Part shown: positions 42,394-54,322 of the stretch, piece after piece
Layout: the number at the start of each line of letters is the position of its first letter
Numbering within the stretch: the stretch's first letter is position 1
Assembly (NCBI GenBank): GCA_963818475.1
Contig: CAWFSF010000005.1
Span: 352,001-416,000, forward strand
Origin: Nitrospirota bacterium
GTDB lineage: Bacteria; Nitrospirota; UBA9217
Length of the DNA stretch: 64,000 bases
Direction of reading: 5' to 3'
Notes under the pieces: generated by a model
The model's input: the letters and a program-made list of their open reading frames with translations, nothing else
What the model was told of the DNA's origin: nothing
Databases searched by the model: none
Translations under genes and position numbers: made by a program

Positions 42394-42709
42394 GATTCTA
42401 TCTCCTTTCATACATTCGCATTCCGTGCTCATGCTCAATTCATCAGCACCGCACGGAAGCGGGCTTTGTTCGACATCATCCGGTCCTCATATAAAAATTA
42501 TAGACAGGGACCACTACGTCGTCAAGGTGGTCGAAAGTCTGAGAAAACAGGTTAGTGAGGGCAATACGAAAAAGGGAGGATGACCTTAACTCTTACTTCC
42601 CGTTCTGCAATTAAAACGCTAAGCCGGAATCAAGGAGGAAATATCCCGGTCGGAAGCGGAATCCCGGCAGGCGAATTTTTAGGTATAATTCTAACGAAGG
42701 AGGAGAGAC

Positions 42710-43304
42710 ATGAGAAAAATAATCGTTTTATCAATGATTACATTAGATGGAGTAATGCAAGCACCTGGTGGACCTGAGGAAGATACATCAGGCGGTTTCA
42801 AATATGGCGGTTGGGTTGCACCTTATTTTGACGAAGTTTCTGGTAAGGTCATGGAAAAACAGATGAAACCTGCAGATCTTCTTTTGGGCAGAAAAACATT
42901 TGAGATTTTTGCCGACTACTGGCCAGAGCATGAAAATGATTGGCCAGGTATCAATGATGTCACAAAATACGTCATGTCCAAGACCATGAAAAAGTCAGAT
43001 TGGAAAAACTCAGTTTTCCTCAAAAGCCTGGCAGATATCAAAAAGCTCAAAAATTCAAAAGGTTCTGACATTCAAGTTCACGGCAGTGGTGAGCTCATTC
43101 AGCTGCTACTTAAGAATGATTTAGTGGACGAACTCTGGCTCAAAATTTTCCCGTTGACTCTTGGTAAAGGAAAAAAGTTGTTTGACAATGGCACGATTCC
43201 GGCAGCATTTACATTAATAGAGAGTTCTGGTTACACCAAGTGGAGTGATTATTGCCAATTACAAGCGAGCTGGAAAAGTCAAGACAGGTACTGTTGGAGC
43301 TTAA
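42710..43304 (+). CDS. dihydrofolate reductase family (RibD C-terminal) protein, frameshift near 43230
   Basis: ITLDGVMQAPGGPEED, LLLGRKTFE, GSGELIQ, LGKGKKLF; true C-terminus YKRAGKVKTGTVGA in another frame. Confidence 0.9.
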
Positions 43305-43325
43305 GGCGGCTAACCTGTTATAATC

Positions 43326-43393
43326 CCCCAGATAAGCTGATATCTTCACCAAGAAGCTTTGGGGACATTGTATACATGCGTTTCATCAGGTCT
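43326..43393. repeat. ~70 bp dispersed hairpin repeat, copy 1
   Basis: ccccagataagctgata.cttcaccaaga.gctttggggacat..tatacatgc..tttcatcaggtct shared with 52144-52214. Confidence 0.85.
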
Positions 43394-43511
43394 GCATTGT
43401 GCAACGGTAGCAATAACAGCAGAGGCTTCGTGGCTTATGCACCGATCGATCTTTTGGAATTCTCTCGGCTTCTCCCTTGTAACGTACTCCTCTTTATGAC
43501 ATAATCGGCCT

Positions 43512-44393
43512 GTGAATAAGGACCTTTCAGCGATCCGCAGGCTCGTCGGTGTGGTCACGAAGGAACAGCTTCGGTATGTAGACTGTTTTGTGTCCGAAGA
43601 AGTCGCGCTGTTCATGCCGATGGGAGGCCCCTGCTACTACGCGCTTACGCCCGAGCACTCCCATCCTGCCTACATGTTCGTGCTTAATTTTACAGACCGG
43701 ATGTCCGTCAAGATCGATGGGAAAACAATACCCGACAGGCCGGGCAAGGTCTTCGCCTTGTCGCCTGACATCCCGCACCAGGAGCTGCCCCTGGACTCGC
43801 CTCCGCGGTATATCTGCGCGATGATCGACAGGATGTTTTTCGAAAAACAGTACCGGAGCTGCGCAGCAAAGACGCCGGCAATCTATCGCGGCGCTTTCTT
43901 CGACGCCGGGGAAGGGCTTCCCCTTCTGCTCAAGCGGTTCATGACCGAGGCGGAAAGCGGAATACCCGGAGGGAAAGCCGTACTCGCGGCACTGGGCGTC
44001 GAGATATGCCATTCGCTCATCAGGACCATCATCAGGACACCTGCAATGAAAAGCCGTGTGGAAGAGCGCGTCGAGATCGGCCGCGCGATCGAGCATATCC
44101 ACTCGAACCTCGATGACAAGCTCATCGTCGAAGACATGGCTGCTGTCGCCCGCTTGTCAGCGTCGCACTTTGCCCGTGTCTTCAAAAAGGAAACGGGCAA
44201 GGCGCCCATGGAATATGTAAGCGAGCTCCGCCTGGAGCGCGCGAAAAAGATGCTCCTTGCCGGAGACCGGTCCATTACCGAGATCGCCGTTCTCTGCGGA
44301 TTCGGCACCCCGTCCTACCTCTCCGCCTGTTTCCAGAAGCAATACCGGATGACGCCGTCAGAGTACCGGCGGATGCCTGGGAAAGCCCGCTAA
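43512..44393 (+). CDS. AraC family transcriptional regulator
   Basis: Cupin-like N-terminus (HSHP); LSASHFARVFK..TG, ITEIA..CGF..PSY. Confidence 0.93.
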   Translation: MNKDLSAIRRLVGVVTKEQLRYVDCFVSEEVALFMPMGGPCYYALTPEHSHPAYMFVLNFTDRMSVKIDGKTIPDRPGKVFALSPDIPHQELPLDSPPRYICAMIDRMFFEKQYRSCAAKTPAIYRGAFFDAGEGLPLLLKRFMTEAESGIPGGKAVLAALGVEICHSLIRTIIRTPAMKSRVEERVEIGRAIEHIHSNLDDKLIVEDMAAVARLSASHFARVFKKETGKAPMEYVSELRLERAKKMLLAGDRSITEIAVLCGFGTPSYLSACFQKQYRMTPSEYRRMPGKAR

Positions 44394-44759
44394 CAGTCGA
44401 ATCTCTAAAAAAGAACATCGAATATTGAAAGCCGGATCTTCGGATTTGCCCTATCATGCTCATCAACAGGATACAGGGGCGAATTTTCAGTCACCATATT
44501 ATGTTCTGTTTCTGTCAATCACAAAAGATCACGTCTTTGCTGTGCTAATAATTCATTGCCGTCCTCCGTGCCTCTGTGTCTCCGTGGTGAAACTGCTTTT
44601 TTAAACTTTACTAATACAAACGCATTTAGATTCATTACCGCTTTCTCCCCTCTCCTTTATCCTCTCCCCAGCGGGGAGAGGGCTGGGTGAGGGGGATTCA
44701 TTCGGGATGTAACAATTATTAATTCGTTTGCATTATATGCTTAATACGAAAGGCGATCT

Positions 44760-45710
44760 ATGAGCGGGTCAAAAAATACGGGATATAAAACATATGCAGC
44801 AGCTCCATTCATGATGATAGTGCTCTATGTACTCGCGGCGGCTTTCTTCTGGCTTCTCTTCAAAGACAAGGCCACGGTCATCTTCTTTGTCATCCTGGCG
44901 GTTATCTTCATCTCGTCCATGAGCCTCTATGCCGTAGTACCGATCAAATTCAAGAACAAGGTTCGGATATCGACCATATTCCTGATCAGCCCGCTGCTCT
45001 TCGGATTGGCCTGCATAGTGGGACGACAGAACTTTCAAATTGAGGGGTTCTTTTTCTATCTCTTGACCGGAACCTTTGGCGGAGTGATGATCCATTTCAC
45101 CGTGGGCAAGATCTTCGGGCCTCTTTTGACGGGGCGGACCTGGTGCAGTTGGGGCTGCTGGACGCTTATGATACTGGATCTGCTGCCCTTTAAGAAGAGC
45201 GACGGCTGGAGGCAGGGAAACATCACCCTGTTGAAATACATCCACCTGGTCCTGTCCCTGGCATTGGTCGTAGTCATGGTCTTTATTTTCAAATACACGC
45301 TCCATGACCCGAATCAAGCGCCGGACCAACCCGGTCTTATGAAAGCGATGTACTGGTTTATCATTGGCAATGTCTTCTATTATGCATCCGCTATCGCAAT
45401 GGCAATTTCATTAAAAGACAATCGGGCATTCTGCAAATACCTCTGCCCGGTGTCCGTGCCGCTGAAGTTCGCCAACCTGTTCTCGATCCTCAGGATCAAA
45501 GGGAATAAGAAAAAATGCGCTCGCTGCAGCACCTGCGTGGGTCAATGTCCATTTAATATCGATATCCCCAGATACATCGAACTGGGGACCCGCATCAAGT
45601 CGTCGGAGTGTGTGATGTGTATGAGGTGCGTTGCGGTCTGTCCGGAAGGCGCGCTTTGTGCTTCTATGGGTTTTGATGTAGTGACCGAGGATTATTTGAA
45701 AAGGTGTTAA
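44760..45710 (+). CDS. membrane 4Fe-4S binding protein (NapH/MauN-like)
   Basis: GRTWCSWGC, RAFCKYLCP and two CxxCxxCxxxCP motifs. Confidence 0.9.
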   Translation: MSGSKNTGYKTYAAAPFMMIVLYVLAAAFFWLLFKDKATVIFFVILAVIFISSMSLYAVVPIKFKNKVRISTIFLISPLLFGLACIVGRQNFQIEGFFFYLLTGTFGGVMIHFTVGKIFGPLLTGRTWCSWGCWTLMILDLLPFKKSDGWRQGNITLLKYIHLVLSLALVVVMVFIFKYTLHDPNQAPDQPGLMKAMYWFIIGNVFYYASAIAMAISLKDNRAFCKYLCPVSVPLKFANLFSILRIKGNKKKCARCSTCVGQCPFNIDIPRYIELGTRIKSSECVMCMRCVAVCPEGALCASMGFDVVTEDYLKRC

Positions 45711-45865
45711 TGCGTTTAATCAAAAGCTTTGGGGAAAATTTAGTCGGAACAAAGATGGTGAGGAAGTAGCGTATAAACCGGTGGCGTGCTGATCTACGCA
45801 ACCTGCACCACCGAGCCGGAGGAGAATGAGCACGTGATCGCCAATGACGGCGGTGAACCATTAAT

Positions 45866-47262
45866 TGTCAAATGTCAGGACATCGGTTACCCGATTCTAA
45901 TGGTCCCATATATCAAGACATCGGTTACCCGAGTCTGATAGTTTGCTCAACTGGTAGTAAATCGTCCGGCATTAGGTACTCAAAAGTATCGACGATGTCA
46001 TTTCCTAGATAGAGCTGCACAGCATGTAGATTCGTTACAATCTGTGCCCTGACATAAGAGTATATGAGGTCTCTTGATACCTCGAAACGTTCTCCAAAGA
46101 TATCAAGCTGCCGATTGCTCCGGATGAACCGTACGAGAGATACATTTCCATCCGGGATGAAGCTAAGATCCGGCATCTTGCTATTCGACCTCACGGTTAT
46201 TGGCGCAAAGCCGTGGGCCAGTTTCATTTCATGAGCCGTTTTCCCTTTGAGGCAGCTGTATCGGTGATGCTTGTTGTGAAACCGTTGAAAATTCTTGTTC
46301 TGCTGTTTCAGCACAGCATAGCTTGAGAACCATTGCCGACGAAAGAACCGTTTGTCGTAGGTGTCATTGAAACGTTCCACAACGCCGTTACGCCATGGTT
46401 CTCCGATCGGGATGAATACCGGATGGACACCGTAACTCAGACAAAGCCGTATGACCATCCCCATGGACCTGGGATGCCGGTTGCTGCCCCGGAAGTTCAG
46501 CGCGTTGTCCATCTGCAGGTAATCAGGGATGCCCACGGTCTTCCAACAGCGCAAAAGGCCTTGGCAGACGTGGGAATCCTGTTTCGTTCTTTGAGCCTCG
46601 GTGTAGACTTCATGGCTGAACAGATCAATGACATTCAGCGCATAGAATCTGCCGTCATCTTTAATGTAGCGCGGCCCCACCAGGTCCATCTGGTGGATGT
46701 TGTTGCATCCCAAGGCTTCGGTGAAGTACGGGTATTCGACCCCTTTGGGCGCATAAGCTGTTTTTTTTAACGAGCCCTTCGCGTTTCAACACCCGGTTTA
46801 TCGTGCTGTCCGAGGGAAACGGCAACCCTTGCTTCTTAAGCTCCCATTTTATGGAGGAAACTCCAATTTGGGCATAAGGGGCATCCACCAAGTTTTGTCT
46901 GGTCGAAAGAATACGCTCTTTCGACTTCTCGTCGATTTCTGAGGGCTTTGTTTTGGGAGCGCGAGATTGCTCTTTGTACCAGTCGGGTCCGCCGGTTCGA
47001 TATCGTATCAGCCATTTGAAGAACCACTTTTTGGATCGGTTCAGGCTGGTATAAACATCCTTTGGCGATTCGCCTCCCTGGATGTGTCGGCTAATAGCTG
47101 CCTGTCTGAGTTCTTCTTCCATAGAGGCTCTCCTTCTTGATTCAGATTAGGAGAGCATGATAGCATCAAACAGCATTAAGGAAACTGACATCCTAATTTA
47201 AATGGATTTCGGGTAACCGATGTCTTGACATATCCGGGTAACCGATGTCCTGAAACTTGTCA
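45866..47262 (-). mobile_element. insertion sequence, IS481-like (HTH + rve DDE transposase, CDS 45925-47122 split at an A8 run)
   Basis: TG...CA ends; two GACATCGGTTACCCG motifs at each end in inverted orientation; ATTAAT duplicated at 45860-45865 and 47263-47268; HQMD, QMDN, NGVVERFN. Confidence 0.92.
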
Positions 47263-47293
47263 ATTAATAACTAAGTTTACAATGTACCAGATA

Positions 47294-48064
47294 CTAATCG
47301 GGGAATGCAATACCGGACAAGCGACCGCATGCTGCAAGATACTTTTCCTGGACAGCCGGGTCCGCGGCAGCCGGGTGAAAGCTCCGGGGTTGTTGATGAG
47401 AGAAATATCTTCCCGAGACCAAGGCTTCCTTGTCCCGGCTCACTGCGAGCCAGACCTGCGTCCTCGATCCCTCCTCGATGCTGTGCGGCGCTCCCGGTCC
47501 TCCCATCTTCGTGGCCACCCAGCCGGGATCCACTGCATTGGACAATACATCGGGCCATTTCCGGGCAGCGGCAAAAGCAAGGATGACGTTGTGCAGCTTC
47601 GATTCGGCGTAGGCGCTCGACTCCTGCCATGGCCGGCTGCTCCAGGTCAGGTCGTTCAACGTGGCATCGCCGCTTCGATGCAGGCCCGAGCTCGTGTAGA
47701 TCAGGCGTTTCGGCCTCCTGATCAGGCAGGTCAGGATATAGGAGGCCAGGGAGTTCACGGCAAAGATCTGCGGCAGGCCATCAACGGTCCGGTTGCCATG
47801 AGGATCGCGATAGATGCCGGCATTATGGATCACGGCATCGATCGGTCCCAGCTCGTTCACCTGGTCCGCAAGGGACTTCGTCTCCGCGATGCTCGCAAGA
47901 TCGCCGATAACGGCGGTCAACGCGCCCGTGACTTTGGAAAGCGCCGCGTTCGCCCGCTGTCGGCTCCGGCCATGCAGCACGACCTGGTGGCCCTGTGCGA
48001 CCAGCAGCTGAGCTTCCATGAGGCCGATACCGTCAGCAGAGCCTGTGATGAATATTCTTGCCAT
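47294..48064 (-). CDS. short-chain dehydrogenase/reductase
   Basis: ITGSADGIG, HNAG, YAESK, VDPGWVATKM. Confidence 0.93.
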   Translation of the reverse strand: MARIFITGSADGIGLMEAQLLVAQGHQVVLHGRSRQRANAALSKVTGALTAVIGDLASIAETKSLADQVNELGPIDAVIHNAGIYRDPHGNRTVDGLPQIFAVNSLASYILTCLIRRPKRLIYTSSGLHRSGDATLNDLTWSSRPWQESSAYAESKLHNVILAFAAARKWPDVLSNAVDPGWVATKMGGPGAPHSIEEGSRTQVWLAVSRDKEALVSGRYFSHQQPRSFHPAAADPAVQEKYLAACGRLSGIAFPD

Positions 48065-48225
48065 CGAGTTTTCTTCGAGATTCCCCCGCCGTCTTCATAT
48101 AGCGCAGGCAAAAGACCGGAGCATCTTCGGGACAATCGCCGCGACAGCCACGGTCCGGGGCACGTGCAACGCCGGATCGCGGTGCAACGAGTCAGGCAAG
48201 CTTTCGCTTTGATCGAGCTTTTGGC

Positions 48226-48672
48226 TTAGCCTTCGCCTTGGATTTGAGCTTGGCTGCTTTTTCGTTTCTTCGGCGCATGCCAATTAAAGGGGATGGGCTG
48301 AAGCATACTCACGCGGTTGCCCTCCGGGTCGATGAACGACACATATTGACCGACGTTCGGGATTTCCATGGGTTCGCCCAGCACATTCCCCCCCGCGGCT
48401 TGCACTTTCTTGATCGATTTCTTGATATCATCAACTGCGATAACGATGGACGGATATTGCGCGGGCCAATCGGGTTTTCTCGGGTAAAAACCGCCGTTGA
48501 TCCTTCCTGGTTTTTTGGGGCCTTTCTCGCCGGTTTCCGTGGTGGCTGCAGTAACATAATTACCCATCTCCTCGCCAAGCATCCGCGTCTGCCAGCCAAA
48601 AGCAGATTTATAGAACTTCGCCATACGCACCCGATCGTCGAATGGCATCTCAAAGTGTACAACGGGATCCAT
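48226..48672 (-). CDS. VOC/glyoxalase family protein
   Basis: VVHFEMP, FY..AFGW, INGG, VDDI, F.DPEGN. Confidence 0.9.
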   Translation of the reverse strand: MDPVVHFEMPFDDRVRMAKFYKSAFGWQTRMLGEEMGNYVTAATTETGEKGPKKPGRINGGFYPRKPDWPAQYPSIVIAVDDIKKSIKKVQAAGGNVLGEPMEIPNVGQYVSFIDPEGNRVSMLQPIPFNWHAPKKRKSSQAQIQGEG

Positions 48673-48728
48673 ACTGTATCCTCCTTGACTATGATGACGG
48701 TGCCTTTAAATGGGTGACCCTATGAGGT

Positions 48729-48899
48729 TCATAATTTGAGGTAGTCGAGCAATCTATACATTATGATTGCAGGCCAAACTATTGCCTTGAGAAAGCCCAA
48801 CACCCCTCCCCAGAAAGAAGTTGAATGCTGAATGAAATATACTGCCGCGCCGACGAATGCCAGACCGTAAATACCTCCACATGATTTTTCGTCTTTCAT
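48729..48899 (-). CDS. 56-aa membrane protein (not in ORF track)
   Basis: MKDEKSCGGIYGLAFVGAAVYFIQHSTSFWGGVLGFLKAIVWPAIIMYRLLDYLKL with RBS aaggag. Confidence 0.75.
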   Translation of the reverse strand: MKDEKSCGGIYGLAFVGAAVYFIQHSTSFWGGVLGFLKAIVWPAIIMYRLLDYLKL

Positions 48900-48970
48900 A
48901 TGTTCTCCTTAACTATAGTATAGTGAAAGTCGTGCCTGAAGAGGTTTCGTGCGTGGAACAGGGATGAATC

Positions 48971-49402
48971 TCAGTATGTTTTCCCCGGCTCAGGCGGACA
49001 AAAATTCACGTTATCGTAATAAGGATAGATGTGGAAGTTAGGGGCGGGCTTCTCGTTTATCTCATAACCATGCTTCCGGAAGGCCGATTTCAGTGCACCC
49101 TGCTGTTCACTGCCGAGTGAGGTGTATAGGCGGTCCAGTTTTTCCTGAGAACGATACGTGCATTGGGCTTCAAGCAACCCGGTGCGCACGTCTGCGGGCA
49201 GCGCTGCATCGGTCAAAACCGCCTCAAGGTCCCCTGACGTGCACAACATTCTATAAAGGGTTTGATCCTGACTGCCGAAAAAATAGGTATTGCAGTCCTT
49301 TGAGACGAGAAACGTCTTTGCGCAGCCGGTGAAGAGCAATGATGCCGATATCATTACCAGCAGCTTCCGGAGTGAAGTCATATGAAGAGCGGTATTCGTC
49401 AT
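48971..49402 (-). CDS. lipoprotein, hypothetical
   Basis: Lipobox FTGC; several Cys; start uncertain. Confidence 0.7.
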   Translation of the reverse strand: MTNTALHMTSLRKLLVMISASLLFTGCAKTFLVSKDCNTYFFGSQDQTLYRMLCTSGDLEAVLTDAALPADVRTGLLEAQCTYRSQEKLDRLYTSLGSEQQGALKSAFRKHGYEINEKPAPNFHIYPYYDNVNFCPPEPGKTY

Positions 49403-49453
49403 AGATTGTTTAGGTTTGCCACGGTCTGCGTGAAACATCAATACCTACCGTCC

Positions 49454-49777
49454 TTATGAATCGACGAGACGGAAGCCGGCGTTCTTCCATCCTTCGACAC
49501 CGCCGCCCAGGACCTTGGCATTCGGAAATCCCTGCGCCAGATATTCCGCTGCCCGACCGGCAGCGCTCGCTTCTTTCTGTCAGGCTCAGTAGAAGATGAT
49601 TTCCTGGTCTCGGGACAGGGAGGGCAACCGCGCCTTGAAGTCCTGCAGCGAGATCGCGGCCTCAAGGTGCGTTTTCCCGAACTTTTCCACGTCCTCGTAC
49701 GCGCATACCAGAAGGGCCTCTCCGGACGTCACCTTCTTGCGCGCCTCTTCTGCCGATATTCTTATTGGCTCGGTCAT
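49454..49777 (-). CDS. rhodanese-like protein, candidate selenoprotein with two in-frame TGA
   Basis: IIFY-TGA-A-TGA-QKEASAAGRAAEYLAQGFPNAKVLGGGVEGWKNAG completes the rhodanese fold; hairpin at 49547-49565. Confidence 0.8.
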
Positions 49778-49968
49778 GGCGGGCCTCCCATCGGTGGATA
49801 GGCTGTGAATGAATAAAGGATAGCATAGACCAGAGGGAGATGCATGGGGAGTGATCTCAAAAGCGGCGGGAGGGCATGAAATGAAGAATCGGCAGGATAA
49901 CCTGTTTTCCCTGTTAGAACTTGTTCTTCTTTTAGAAGAATCTTCAATTTCCGCTTTGTTCTTTTCAT

Positions 49969-50022
49969 AAAAAAGGCCGGCAGAGATAATTTCTCCGCCG
50001 ACCTCGCTGTTTCAGTTCCTCG
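49969..50022. repeat. degenerate direct copy of the groEL terminator region
   Basis: ccggcagagata.t.tctc.gccg.cct..tgtttcagttcctcg matches 57818-57870. Confidence 0.8.
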
Positions 50023-50129
50023 CCTGCACCCAGCGATACGAGTGCTCGCCGCGAGTGCAGGTGTGAAAGAAAACTTTTTATTCTTGATAAAGGAATCTAA
50101 AGACTTCGCCATCGTCCGCGGGCAGCTAT

Positions 50130-50312
50130 TTATCGTCCTGAGATTTTCTTCCACCTCTCCAGTTTCCGCGAAGGAACGAAATCGTTGACAAATTGATTCG
50201 CCTCTTCGAGCCAGTTCAGCTTTGCCTCGGGTGACGCGTCTTGGAAGTGTTTCAGCGCCTCTGGCGATGGACGGAAAACAAAAGGTTTTTTTCGCGGGTC
50301 CCGGCTGATCAT
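50130..50312 (-). CDS. small hypothetical partner of the nucleotidyltransferase
   Basis: ATGA overlap with upstream gene; SPEAKLNWLEEAN. Confidence 0.7.
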   Translation of the reverse strand: MISRDPRKKPFVFRPSPEALKHFQDASPEAKLNWLEEANQFVNDFVPSRKLERWKKISGR

Positions 50313-50806
50313 TTCGTTTCCTCCGCCTGCTCCAGCGACTCGATTGCCTCGATATCCGCGATGTCCTGCGGTCTGTTTGCCGCTTTTTTGAGTCTCTTCA
50401 AATGCGCCAGCGAAACAACGGGTATGGAGATTCCTTTCGCCGTAACGCGCACAAGCTCATTCATGATCTCTCCGAAGGGGATCTTTTCCTCGATAAATAC
50501 ATCGATCAAGGTCATCGGCTGCCCCGGGTCAACGAACGAGAACACCTCCATGCCCTTATCCCGCTTCCATTGGATCCGTGCGGCCGGATCGAGCAAATCC
50601 ACGGCTTTCACGGGATTTCGCGGGACGTAGCCCAGTTCACCCATGGCTTGAACAAAGCGTTCCAGGTTGTCCGGCTCCAGATCAACGATCAGATCAAGGT
50701 CGGCAGTGAACCTGACCACGCCATGAAGCACCAGCGCGACGCCGCCTGCGACGGCGTACCGTATGCTGTTTTTCTGAAGCACGCTGAAAACATTTTCATA
50801 ATACAT
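50309..50806 (-). CDS. minimal nucleotidyltransferase-fold protein
   Basis: VAGGVALVLHG..RFTADLDL; LKKAANRPQDIADI. Confidence 0.85.
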   Translation of the reverse strand: MYYENVFSVLQKNSIRYAVAGGVALVLHGVVRFTADLDLIVDLEPDNLERFVQAMGELGYVPRNPVKAVDLLDPAARIQWKRDKGMEVFSFVDPGQPMTLIDVFIEEKIPFGEIMNELVRVTAKGISIPVVSLAHLKRLKKAANRPQDIADIEAIESLEQAEETK

Positions 50807-51062
50807 TCGGGAGCCCTGTTCTGAGATTGCCTTGCCACATGCCGAAAATAAAACGTCTCAACTTACTGAAAACTTTACTACATATATCCACAAAGGGCAA
50901 GCGAAGAATCGTTCGTGCCTATCGCACAGGCTTTTATCAACTCAAGCAACAGCCCCACAACGGGGACTTTTATGTCTAAAAACGGCAGTTACTCGCGCAA
51001 AAAGCCGCAAAGTACGCTAAGAAAAGTTGGGACTTGAACCCTTTGAGTGAACCCTTTTAGGG

Positions 51063-51932
51063 TCAAGTCGCTTTTGTTGCATTCTCATATTCACGCAACC
51101 ACCGGCTTATCGTCGAACGGTGGACTGCGAGGTGTCGTGCAAGCTGACTTTGATGATAGCCGTACTTCTCTACCGCTTCTATCAGTTTCTTCTTCAGCTT
51201 TCGCTGATCGGCGTTTATCGATTCTGGCAACAGCTTTGACAATGCGGGCCGCGTTGAGTATCGCTGGCTCCGAGGAATCTCGGGGATATCCTGGTGTTTC
51301 CTGAGATGATCCACCAACGTCTCGACAAAGTCATCCTCGCCCAGGAGCGCCTGCCCCCTCACCGCAGTCCAGATCGTTTCTTCCCCGATCCCCCATCTGA
51401 TGAATTGCCGGTACTCGCTTTCCGCTTTTCCACGCTTTCCACTGAACTGCCCGAGCACCCAATCCGTAGTCAGGCAAGGGTGGGACTTCGCTTGGCCCGC
51501 TGTGGCCAGATAACTGGACCACTTCCAGGACTCCGGTCCTTCAACCATCCTGGCTCGCACTGGATTCAGGACAACATAGCGGCATACTTCCAGAAGATGG
51601 CTGTCTTTCTGGATCAGTATCGCCTTGTAGCGACCTTGAAACAAGTGTCCGTTCCTGCCGTGATATTTGTTGAAGAGCTGCGTGTAGACACCGTTGAGCT
51701 GCCGCATGCCAAGGGACAGATTGCCTTCGGGAGTCTCGATGAGAAGATGGTAATGGTTGGTCATGAGGCAATAGGCGTGACAGTTCCAATTGTACCGTTT
51801 ATTGACGTGCTGGAGAGTATTCAAAAAAACTTCCCGGTCATGATCATCCTTAAAGACAGGCTTCTTCTCATTCCCGCGGGAAGTGACATGGTAGACTGCA
51901 CCTGCGTATTCTATGCGGAGAGGGCGTGACAT
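51063..51932 (-). CDS. Y1 HUH transposase (RAYT/IS200-like) with C-terminal HTH
   Basis: YHVTSRGN, AYCLMTNHYHLL, GHLFQGRY, YVVLNPVRA, WKWSSY; inverted repeats at 51051-51081 and 51963-51992. Confidence 0.92.
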   Translation of the reverse strand: MSRPLRIEYAGAVYHVTSRGNEKKPVFKDDHDREVFLNTLQHVNKRYNWNCHAYCLMTNHYHLLIETPEGNLSLGMRQLNGVYTQLFNKYHGRNGHLFQGRYKAILIQKDSHLLEVCRYVVLNPVRARMVEGPESWKWSSYLATAGQAKSHPCLTTDWVLGQFSGKRGKAESEYRQFIRWGIGEETIWTAVRGQALLGEDDFVETLVDHLRKHQDIPEIPRSQRYSTRPALSKLLPESINADQRKLKKKLIEAVEKYGYHQSQLARHLAVHRSTISRWLREYENATKAT

Positions 51933-52143
51933 GGGGTGAGCTTAGCAGAAAAAAGGACGTATTGCAACAAAAGAGACCTGACCCTAAAGGGTCCCTGGAA
52001 CCTTAGTGTCCACGTCCCCTATGTATCCTAAAAGTCCGGAGAATCATTTCCAGCCTTTTCTTTTTGTTCTCTTTGTCGGCTGCGACTGCCTCTCGCTATG
52101 AATCAGAACAAAAGCATACATAGAAACAACGTCCCCAAGTCTG

Positions 52144-52214
52144 CCCCAGATAAGCTGATAACTTCACCAAGACGCTTTGGGGACATCCTATACATGCTTT
52201 CTTTCATCAGGTCT
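52144..52214. repeat. ~70 bp dispersed hairpin repeat, copy 2
   Basis: Matches 43326-43393. Confidence 0.85.
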
Positions 52215-52274
52215 AGCAAAGCAACCATAGAAACAATTTCCCTATCGTGCCCTACTGTCTCCCTTGGTTGTATT

Positions 52275-53828
52275 TCACTCTGCTGTATTTTCGGTATTTT
52301 GCGGAAAAACTTCTCGTTGATCATAACGATACCGATCTAACTTTCTCAAGTCTCGTGCTAGTGGTTGTTTTGGACTCGACATGAACTCTTTTACACTAGG
52401 AGCTTTCCTAAATCCCGTATAGAAGGCGTAATCAAGCATATATGCTTCATACTTCTCACCTGCAGTTGTAGGTGTTATGCCTGGATGTAAAATATGAATG
52501 AATCGTAGATCGCTTACTTTTTTAATTAATTTATATCGTTCATCCGAGCTATCAAGTTTAACAAGAAAAGCGTTACGCTTAATTTCCTTTAGGCAATAAT
52601 CCTTTATGTCATTGACAATATCTATAACGAGCGTTGCCGCCTCGGCTACATCATCTGACACATAATTTTCTTTCTCCGTTAAAGAATCAGCGGCGGCCAT
52701 GTTTATATCCATTACCGCAACATTAGTACGTCCGGCTGCAAGTGCTTTTGTAATTGCATTATTAAAAATATAGAGAGCATCTCGTGGAACGCCAGCTGCA
52801 ACCCATACGAGTCTTGAAAGAGCCGCTTTTCCGGCTATGCTCGCTATGCTAGGAATTCCAACATATTTCACATAGCTATCAAGTATCAAATGCAAGTGAT
52901 TAAGTGCTTCACCTGGATTGACTAAGTTATAATCAAGTCGTATTACCTGAGCATCGCCGGGGGTCTGAAGTCCTTCATTTGTTTGTTCATGTAAAAGCGT
53001 TGTTAGGTTTTCAATGGACGTAATTTTTAAATAAATGCTGTTCCCTCGTGCGAACGAATAGATTGTTGATAAAAAATAGGGTTGAATCGTTGGATGTAAC
53101 AGGTGAAGATCATCCAAAAATAAATAAAAATGTCCAAACTTGCGCACGAATGGCAAAAAATCGCGTGCAAAAATAGGTAATTTTTGATTAATTTCTCTTT
53201 TTGTAAGTTGTTCTCCCTTGTTTTCAAGAGCAATAATAATATCTTTGAGCCGTTGTATCCGATTCACATCAGCTTCTGAGTACTCCGAAATTGCATCAAC
53301 TATTTCATAAAGAACCTGAGGAATAACTAATAGATCATCTCTCCCGCTGTATTGCTGGAGAGCGATCCAGGCAAAAGGTCTCTTCTCGCGTTTAGCTTGA
53401 TGACATGCATAAAGTACCAAACTTGATTTCCCTGCGCCGCGTCGGCCAAAAACTACGTGGTTAGCTTCGCTGTATATCCGTCGCTCCTCACCTCCTAAAA
53501 ATGGAATGAATTTTTTGTGAAAATCGGAGTCGAGTGTTGCTTTGCCGACAGTAAGCGATTCTGACAGTATACGTTGAAGAAGTTGAATCTCATTAGATTT
53601 GAGCCACGATTTTGGTATGACTGTCTTCAAGAATACGTGCTCTGAATATTTATTGTTCGACCCCATCTCATTACGAATAAGTGAAAGAGCATTTGTATAA
53701 ATCTCGTTGATATGCCCTACGTGGATTGCTAAAAAATCTTCGCCTGCCTTGTCAATTATTTGCCAGTTAGGGGTAGTAATGTTGCACACAGCAGCAAAAC
53801 GATTAATAAACTGTTTGGCTTGATCCAT
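52275..53828 (-). CDS. P-loop NTPase (STAND/ORC-CDC6-like), possible defence component
   Basis: Walker A GRRGAGKS, Walker B YLFLDD, GVPRDAL; AT-rich. Confidence 0.85.
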   Translation of the reverse strand: MDQAKQFINRFAAVCNITTPNWQIIDKAGEDFLAIHVGHINEIYTNALSLIRNEMGSNNKYSEHVFLKTVIPKSWLKSNEIQLLQRILSESLTVGKATLDSDFHKKFIPFLGGEERRIYSEANHVVFGRRGAGKSSLVLYACHQAKREKRPFAWIALQQYSGRDDLLVIPQVLYEIVDAISEYSEADVNRIQRLKDIIIALENKGEQLTKREINQKLPIFARDFLPFVRKFGHFYLFLDDLHLLHPTIQPYFLSTIYSFARGNSIYLKITSIENLTTLLHEQTNEGLQTPGDAQVIRLDYNLVNPGEALNHLHLILDSYVKYVGIPSIASIAGKAALSRLVWVAAGVPRDALYIFNNAITKALAAGRTNVAVMDINMAAADSLTEKENYVSDDVAEAATLVIDIVNDIKDYCLKEIKRNAFLVKLDSSDERYKLIKKVSDLRFIHILHPGITPTTAGEKYEAYMLDYAFYTGFRKAPSVKEFMSSPKQPLARDLRKLDRYRYDQREVFPQNTENTAE

Positions 53829-54322
53829 TATGAGATTGCTCCTAGTGTTATCAAATAATTGCGCGCTACCTGGTGGAATCTTCGCGCTTCTGAAACGTAT
53901 GTGTGGCTTGTGAGTTCTAATGCCTGTTCAGATACCGTATGGTCGTAATCGGCAAGATTTCGATCAGCTCTAAATTTAATGAGAAAATCTTCCCATGTCG
54001 ATTTATCTGGAAAGTTATTTGGTAATTCACCGATCTTTTTATGGTCAGTAGGCTCTGTATTGTAATAACCGCTGGACTTGAGCCTAACTGCTCGGCTCAT
54101 ACAGTAAGTACTATAATAGCCTCGTGAGACTCTTTGCCGCCAGCTTGATTGACCTGCAGCCGACTCTGCAAATAGTAGATGTGAGCGGCTAAGATTGACT
54201 AATTGCTGGACGTTTTCATTTATAGCAGCTTGTATTTTTCCCAGTTCCCCAGCGTCCAGAATGGATTCAAGGCACCTCATTGTTTTTTGCAGATTGATAT
54301 TTAAAAGGTGATTATCGTCCAT
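53828..54322 (-). CDS. HEPN domain protein
   Basis: VSRGYYSTY, DHKKIG and RNLADYDH motifs; TAATG overlap with the NTPase. Confidence 0.75.
   Translation of the reverse strand: MDDNHLLNINLQKTMRCLESILDAGELGKIQAAINENVQQLVNLSRSHLLFAESAAGQSSWRQRVSRGYYSTYCMSRAVRLKSSGYYNTEPTDHKKIGELPNNFPDKSTWEDFLIKFRADRNLADYDHTVSEQALELTSHTYVSEARRFHQVARNYLITLGAIS

Follow-up and report, generated by a model that had tools for sequence, protein, structure and literature searches.

A rhodanese gene interrupted by two in-frame TGA codons lies on the minus strand of the window (the whole stretch of 64,000 nucleotides that was analysed) at 49454..49777. On the comparative evidence, this is almost certainly a genuine selenoprotein gene whose TGAs are to be read as selenocysteine (Sec). 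Our main reading, to which we assign a probability of about 0.72, is that the gene is intact and that its product is a C-x-U-type rhodanese selenoprotein of 107 residues and a single domain, in which Cys64 has been replaced by Sec as well, giving Y-U-A-U. We also favor, a little less firmly, a broader proposal: one fixed SECIS element would direct Sec to two UGAs lying 6 nt apart (14- and 20-nt spacers), and the resulting diselenide-capable U-x-U site would have arisen at least three times from C-x-U, so as to be found today in about one fifth of a widespread soil and sediment family.

Reading frame, rhodanese domain and active-site position

The table-11 ORF at this locus (49586..49777, minus strand) stops at a TGA right after ...QEIIFY. 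Past IIFY, the same frame runs through TGA-GCC-TGA (U64-A65-U66) and 41 further codons to a TAA, for a total of 107 aa. A preliminary description of this DNA had given the same ORF end, codons and length, and all were reproduced when the frame was re-read. It had also named a 7-bp stem, cgctgcc-GGTCG-ggcagcg, which was found at 49547-49565 on the minus strand, with the loop beginning, as described, 21 nt past the second TGA and 27 nt past the first. The description was likewise right that the gene is invisible to standard gene callers, which end it at codon 63 as the table-11 ORF does; the family is therefore mis-annotated as a fragment wherever it is present. The features of the locus are as follows.

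49454..49777, minus strand: predicted rhodanese selenoprotein gene, 107 codons plus TAA (49454-49456), ATG at 49775-49777; from the read-through translation.
49586..49588, minus strand: UGA1, codon 64, after the IIFY strand; predicted Sec here, Cys in about half of the orthologues.
49580..49582, minus strand: UGA2, codon 66, the putative family-defining Sec of the C-x-U motif; from comparison with orthologues.
49547..49565, minus strand: predicted SECIS hairpin, with a 7-bp stem (49559-49565 paired with 49547-49553) and the loop GGUCG (49554-49558).
49784..49789, minus strand: Shine-Dalgarno-like GGGAGG, 6 nt 5' of the ATG; from sequence inspection.
49978..50000, minus strand: terminator-like hairpin plus T-run, upstream of the rhodanese gene; from a consensus scan, a pattern match only.

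The GGGAGG falls within a 78-nt upstream stretch that is conserved with another copy of the gene, locus L090, and the terminator-like hairpin upstream suggests that the rhodanese gene is its own transcription unit. The codons downstream of the TGAs are coding-like: in a codon alignment of 81 sequences, entropies at positions 1, 2 and 3 were 0.69, 0.73 and 1.45 past UGA2, and 0.89, 0.66 and 1.59 before UGA1. Selection on the sequence past the UGAs is of the coding type.

A normal rhodanese C-terminus beyond the TGAs, another point of the preliminary description, was confirmed by the Pfam Rhodanese match (PF00581), which spans both TGAs. Residues 9-100 align to positions 2-102 of the 102-position profile (E = 2.3e-9), and the whole protein scores 38 bits, above the gathering cut-off of 22.2. 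AlphaFold2, run on the 81-sequence alignment, returned one confident rhodanese domain (pLDDT 90.4, pTM 0.83), in which a strand (residues 59-63) is followed by a loop (64-66) and a helix (67-81). The top PDB matches, both by fold and by profile, were rhodaneses, including GlpE (1gmx), BH2092 (3o3w/3nhv) and 6mxv; the Foldseek TMq to 1gmx was 0.74, and profile E values to solved rhodaneses ranged from 2e-6 to 3.3e-16. In these alignments, residue 64 is matched by the Cys just past the strand (...fYC... in 6mxv and ...TYC... in 3o3w), which we take to be the catalytic Cys, making residue 64 presumably the canonical catalytic position. A third Cys, at residue 25 (...LVCAYE...), is conserved in 90% or more of the 81 aligned family members and might act as a resolving partner to the Cys/Sec pair of the active site.

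Cys/Sec alternation in homologues and the downstream hairpin

The window's order, which consists of one family, was searched in 64 genomes with an orthologue threshold of E <= 1e-15. An orthologue was found in 18 genomes, at 47-96% identity. Codon 66 is TGA in all 18, and codon 64 is TGA in nine of them, distributed over five genera, and TGT or TGC in the remaining nine. The U-x-U genes are 77-96% identical to one another and keep all conserved residues as well as the hairpin. Because the same codons and hairpin recur in orthologues, the two TGAs and the hairpin are beyond chance.

A one-genome-per-species scan returned 80 loci (71 C-x-U, 8 U-x-U and 1 C-x-C), a count that is biased to C-x-U since one of the two query peptides demanded Cys at position 64. 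This collection overlaps that of the order search, and the counts of the two are not additive. The record titles of the 80 loci name Nitrospirota, Thermodesulfobacteriota, Acidobacteriota, Rokuibacteriota and others, and the family consensus is ...IIFYCAU... vs ...IIFYUAU... here. The preliminary description had proposed judging its reading by whether homologues have Cys or Sec at both positions; they do, with 9 TGA to 9 TGY at codon 64 (n = 18) and 79 TGA to 1 TGC at codon 66 (n = 80). The single TGC belongs to L147 (1970-2287; Deltaproteobacteria bacterium RIFOXYD12_FULL_50_9), which alone of the 80 genome loci is all-Cys (C-S-C); its branch is long (1.23), and the loop of its hairpin region is altered to GGGGU.

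Metagenome contigs were searched with a DNA pattern that is neutral at codon 64, where it allowed TGA, TGC or TGT. At least 120 stretches matched this pattern, and 80 loci among them comprised 15 U-x-U and 65 C-x-U genes. In the same 80 of at least 120, the U-x-U loci are widely diverged in sequence, and a C-terminal GG..W motif (regular expression) is found in 66 loci, 14 of them U-x-U. In a quick maximum-likelihood tree of 81 rows, which left out the motif columns, the duplicate locus L099 and the early-stop locus L153, U-x-U needs five changes, at least three of which are forced by well-supported branches. Given the orthologue and metagenome codons and this tree, both TGAs appear to occupy Cys/Sec-alternating positions, the second an essentially invariant Sec and the first a residue that seems to have switched repeatedly.

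It is very improbable that TGC or TGT was misread or misassembled as TGA at one or both codons. The assembly does have local patches of indel errors, as described below, but the errors seen are indels, not substitutions. Furthermore, the identical TGA-GCC-TGA is present in genomes G084, G076 and G022 and in locus L092, and TGA-x-TGA in five more. The nearest copy, L090, comes from another genus and encodes a protein that is 96% identical; only 401 bp is shared between it and the window, comprising the gene and 78 nt upstream of it, without gaps and at 95.8% identity.

Downstream of the two codons, the stem of the hairpin, 7 bp closed by the loop GGUCG, begins 14 nt from UGA2 and 20 nt from UGA1. 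The hairpin alone (centroid structure) has an energy of -14.8 kcal/mol. The fold energy of an 81-nt stretch is no better than that of shuffles (z = 0.12), so support for the hairpin comes from conservation and covariation and not from energy. The hairpin occupies identical columns, with no gaps, in all aligned sequences. Among the 18 orthologues, 96% of the stem cells pair, compared to 23-63% in controls that slide the partner by 1-3 columns. Of the seven stem pairs, three change on both sides (C-G to U-A and U-A to C-G). The observed covariation is higher than in any of 500 shuffles or any slid control, and RNAalifold arrives at this stem independently. In the 81-sequence set, which spans several phyla, 85% of the cells pair, compared to 22-55% in slid controls. 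Each of the inner 5 bp is kept in 75-81 of the 81 sequences, with 17 double changes at one pair, and the outer two pairs are kept in about half. The covarying columns are synonymous third positions, and third-position entropy is 0.88 in hairpin codons 72-78 vs 1.57 elsewhere downstream, a lowering that indicates selection for the RNA and not for the protein.

The loop, GGUCG in the window, is GGUCG, CGGCG or CGUCG across the 18 orthologues. The part of a 2026 review (PMC13188914) that sets out the bacterial SECIS model gives a loop of 3-9 nt, an upper stem of 4-16 bp, a G in one of the first two loop positions, an energy of <= -7.5 kcal/mol and a UGA-to-loop distance of 16-37 nt. In loop, stem, G, distance (21 and 27 nt) and energy, the hairpin fits the model given there for both UGAs. 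This agreement bears out the SECIS-like hairpin of the preliminary description, which is also the sole conserved structure with covariation. RNAalifold further proposed a second helix, with columns 9-13 paired to 30-34 (5 bp, enclosing both UGAs); it has only one-sided changes, none of them compensatory, and was rejected. No separate covarying structure for UGA1 was found in the alignment or by RNAalifold.

We infer Sec insertion at either codon, the use of one hairpin for both and the resulting chemistry from sequence comparison. SelB with Sec-tRNA(Sec) would bind the single hairpin inside the coding sequence. The hairpin (5-7 bp stem, GGUC[G/A] loop, fixed 14 nt past UGA2) would recode UGA2, as in all members; in U-x-U members, the same hairpin would also recode UGA1, 6 nt further upstream (20-nt spacer), and SelB would have to load a second time before the hairpin enters the ribosome. 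The active-site loop of the product, at the N-terminal end of helix 67-81, would hold two selenols or an Se-Se bond, and C-x-U members would have a thiol/selenol pair or an S-Se bond instead. Such an arrangement of a Se/S pair would suit sulfur/selenium transfer or a redox reaction.

Against this proposal, the UGA1-to-stem spacer of 20 nt is longer than the 14 nt of every C-x-U member, there is no separate structure for UGA1, and the energy of the 81-nt fold does not rise above shuffles. In a competing account, efficient decoding as Sec is confined to UGA2; UGA1 is a slightly harmful nonsense mutation of the Cys codon that mostly terminates translation, and the U-x-U genes are en route to loss. 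A change from TGY to TGA is indeed a single substitution, the hairpin sits at the UGA2 spacing of every C-x-U member, and no extra UGA1 element was found. Bacterial Sec insertion is also reportedly position-sensitive, according to work on E. coli fdhF. Nonetheless, we consider this account quite unlikely. U-x-U is present in 9 of 18 orthologues from 5 genera and in 15 of 80 diverged metagenome loci (80 of at least 120), it arose at least three times by the tree, and the U-x-U genes, 77-96% identical, have kept all conserved residues and the hairpin. Moreover, the UGA1-to-loop distance of 27 nt lies within the 16-37 nt of the SECIS model as outlined in PMC13188914.

If the reading of one hairpin for both codons is true, the U-x-U genes would be a natural demonstration that SelB/SECIS spacing tolerates a 6-nt shift, with rapid reloading within two codons. 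C-x-U and U-x-U genes form matched natural pairs with the same hairpin and spacing, which could probe both the distance tolerance of SelB and the ability of one hairpin to serve two insertions two codons apart. Comparing the pairs would also reveal the contribution of a second selenium at the canonical rhodanese catalytic position.

Selenocysteine machinery, assembly quality and genomic setting

The source genome consists of 7 contigs with a total of 4.66 Mb and is 91% complete. It contains a tRNA-Sec (63.2 bits; anticodon TCA by ARAGORN), a selD above the cut-off (323 bits) with a TGA in its ...CAGU... active-site motif and, on contig 6, adjacent selA and selB genes. The preliminary description had made its reading depend on Sec machinery, and this expectation was borne out in part: tRNA-Sec, selD, selA and selB are all present, but selA and selB are frameshifted in the assembly. 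selA is split over all three frames by about 2 shifts and selB likewise by 7 shifts, and selD changes frame once close to its 3' end. A search of the 7 contigs turned up no further copy of selA or selB.

Elsewhere, the genome has at least two rhodanese genes in which a TGA interrupts the frame at or near the active site. One (G000:C5:72165-72458, minus strand) has the TGA at the canonical catalytic position (...AYUGSG...). The other (G000:C5:496603-496875, plus strand) encodes a multi-domain rhodanese protein with the TGA five residues past a Cys (...YYCAGMTU...).

The frameshifts bear directly on the main reading. If those in selA and selB, and that at the selD 3' end, were real, the organism could not make Sec; selA and selB would be true pseudogenes, both UGAs would terminate and the rhodanese gene would be a relic giving a 63-residue fragment. 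About nine frameshifts in selA and selB together, one in selD and the lack of a second selA or selB in the 7 contigs of a genome that is only 91% complete are in keeping with such a relic. The character of the lesions argues otherwise. Compared to two same-genus genomes, selB has six 1-nt insertions, one 1-nt deletion and no 3n indels. It carries no extra substitutions, being 86% identical to each relative vs 83% between the relatives. Furthermore, ORFs are fragmented over about 11.6 kb of neighboring genes as far as the end of selB, beyond which they are clean, and the fusA/tuf stretch on contig 1, with an essential fusA-like gene, is also split. All 12 of the indels listed against short-read contigs from four runs over the selAB region are single extra letters in the assembly; these contigs measure 83-456 nt in the listed pieces, are 90-100% alike, some of them just 90-95%, give patchy cover and may come from other strains.

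Other genomes point the same way. selB is intact in three of five same-genus genomes; it is fragmented alike in G003, a few-contig genome (9 contigs, 71% complete), whereas the many-contig genomes of the genus have it intact. It is also intact in four of the five other family genomes searched, including G030, which carries a U-x-U gene. In addition, the rhodanese gene, selD and the two other rhodanese genes keep their in-frame TGAs without other damage. Thus, the selA and selB frameshifts are very likely local assembly errors, and we regard a relic as unlikely.

Two stretches of the assembly stand out. G000:C6:1728001-1739600 (L170 1-11600) holds selA, selB and upstream genes with many single-base frameshifts; clean long ORFs resume at L170:11665, and the fragmented stretch looks like an unpolished assembly patch. 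At G000:C1:174716-177125, a tuf copy and the adjoining fusA-like gene are split over three frames. The other tuf copy, at C1:190938-192077, is intact, and the split one appears to be a second patch of likely assembly indels beside a repeated gene. Among the 14 sequencing runs listed for positions 45000-54000 of the window, none shared more than 0.17 of the words and none was RNA.

Genome-wide reassignment of TGA, for example to Trp or Gly and without Sec, is hardly credible, and nothing was found in its favor. TGA is the commonest stop codon, ending 1277 of the 2496 stop-to-stop ORFs with 300 aa or more, so the code has not been reassigned. Moreover, several orthologues themselves end at TGA, and the in-frame TGAs align with Cys, not with Trp or Gly.

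ORF clustering around 83 loci revealed no conserved neighbor; the recurrent clusters are the gene itself and antisense ORFs lying over it. The neighbors in the window are an HTH fragment, a short-chain dehydrogenase (SDR), a glyoxalase-fold protein, an IS200-like Y1 transposase and an AAA/ORC-like ATPase. Since no neighbor is conserved and those in the window are unrelated to each other and rich in mobile elements, the context holds no functional clue. A second segment shared with L090 lies 155 bp off in L090 and 6.1 kb off in the window. With only the 401 bp around the gene shared here and the second segment at a different distance in the two loci, the rhodanese gene appears to behave as a small, mobile, self-contained unit.

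In coordinates, the shared segments are 42678-43351 and 49455-49855 of the window and 2095-2768 and 2923-3323 of L090. The interval between them in the window (43352-49454) holds the HTH fragment, SDR and glyoxalase-fold genes and a putative lipoprotein gene, and it looks like an insertion or rearrangement beside the rhodanese gene. Two genes upstream of the latter, 51063-51932 (minus strand) encodes a protein of 289 aa in which an IS200-like Y1 transposase domain (52.8 bits) is combined with a C-terminal HTH. A 165-aa gene at 50309-50806 (minus strand) has weak, sub-threshold matches to AbiEii/DUF6036-type nucleotidyltransferases and is followed by an overlapping 60-aa ORF (50130-50312, minus strand); the pair may be toxin-antitoxin-like.

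Relation to known rhodaneses and selenoproteins

GlpE (1gmx), BH2092 (3o3w/3nhv) and 6mxv have the same fold as the U-A-U rhodanese, and the position of their catalytic Cys is residue 64 here; unlike it, they are all-Cys enzymes made without recoding. The loop past the catalytic residue also differs from that of solved rhodaneses, with BH2092 having a loop of equal length that reads C-W-G-P-A-C.

Among NCBIfam models, NF041203 (rhodanese_LYCAU, titled "rhodanese-related (seleno)protein") is the best match for all 81 family members, with a best E value of 3.7e-20 among them. The protein encoded in the window scores 46.9 bits, below the equivalog cut-off of 115, and no genome locus reaches that cut-off, the best being 62.8 bits at C6:403001-403267. 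NF041203 describes rhodanese form 3 (CxU), which is likewise a single rhodanese domain with Sec two residues past a Cys after the central strand (...YCAU...), and its C-A-U type of motif after the strand is present here as ...IIFYUAU.... In contrast to NF041203, the Cys is Sec here, and the alignment is confined to the C-terminal half, with residues 40-102 matching profile positions 57-121. Because the scores lie far below 115 bits and no more than this half aligns, we place the ...IIFYC/U-x-U... family as a sister of NF041203, not a member.

Both the CxU form and proteins with more than one Sec have been catalogued. In its sections on these proteins, the 2026 review (PMC13188914) lists rhodanese selenoprotein form 3 (CxU, NF041203) and counts TsoB (UxxxxU) among a small set of multi-Sec proteins. 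TsoB (NF045694, rhodanese/DsbD fusion-like), as far as it is described there, also has a rhodanese-type domain with two close Sec residues, but it is a fusion protein with 4 residues between them. A weak NF045694 match was obtained for 31 of the 81 members (best E 3.4e-6).

A precedent for the motif is a UxU rhodanese-related sulfurtransferase selenoprotein from Olavius algarvensis symbionts, given in the relevant passage of Zhang and Gladyshev (2007; PMC1976440), where UxU arose as "a second Sec evolved." Compared by that text description only, the symbiont form has the same motif and followed the same evolutionary route; that text does not deal with how often UxU arises, with repeated origins or with the service of both codons by one SECIS. 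Full-text literature searches for UxU together with selenocysteine returned no rhodanese paper beyond PMC1976440. The preliminary description had called a UxU active site unusual; this was overstated, given the 2007 account of a UxU rhodanese in that passage of PMC1976440 and the 15 U-x-U genes in 80 metagenome loci (80 of at least 120).

Altogether, the gene is genuine and of a known kind, CxU and UxU rhodanese selenoproteins already being in print, and current knowledge is not overturned. What goes beyond the published accounts that we found is the frequency of U-x-U, about one fifth in 80 of at least 120 metagenome loci, and its repeated origin, together with covariation for a single fixed hairpin and the location of the second Sec at the canonical catalytic position.
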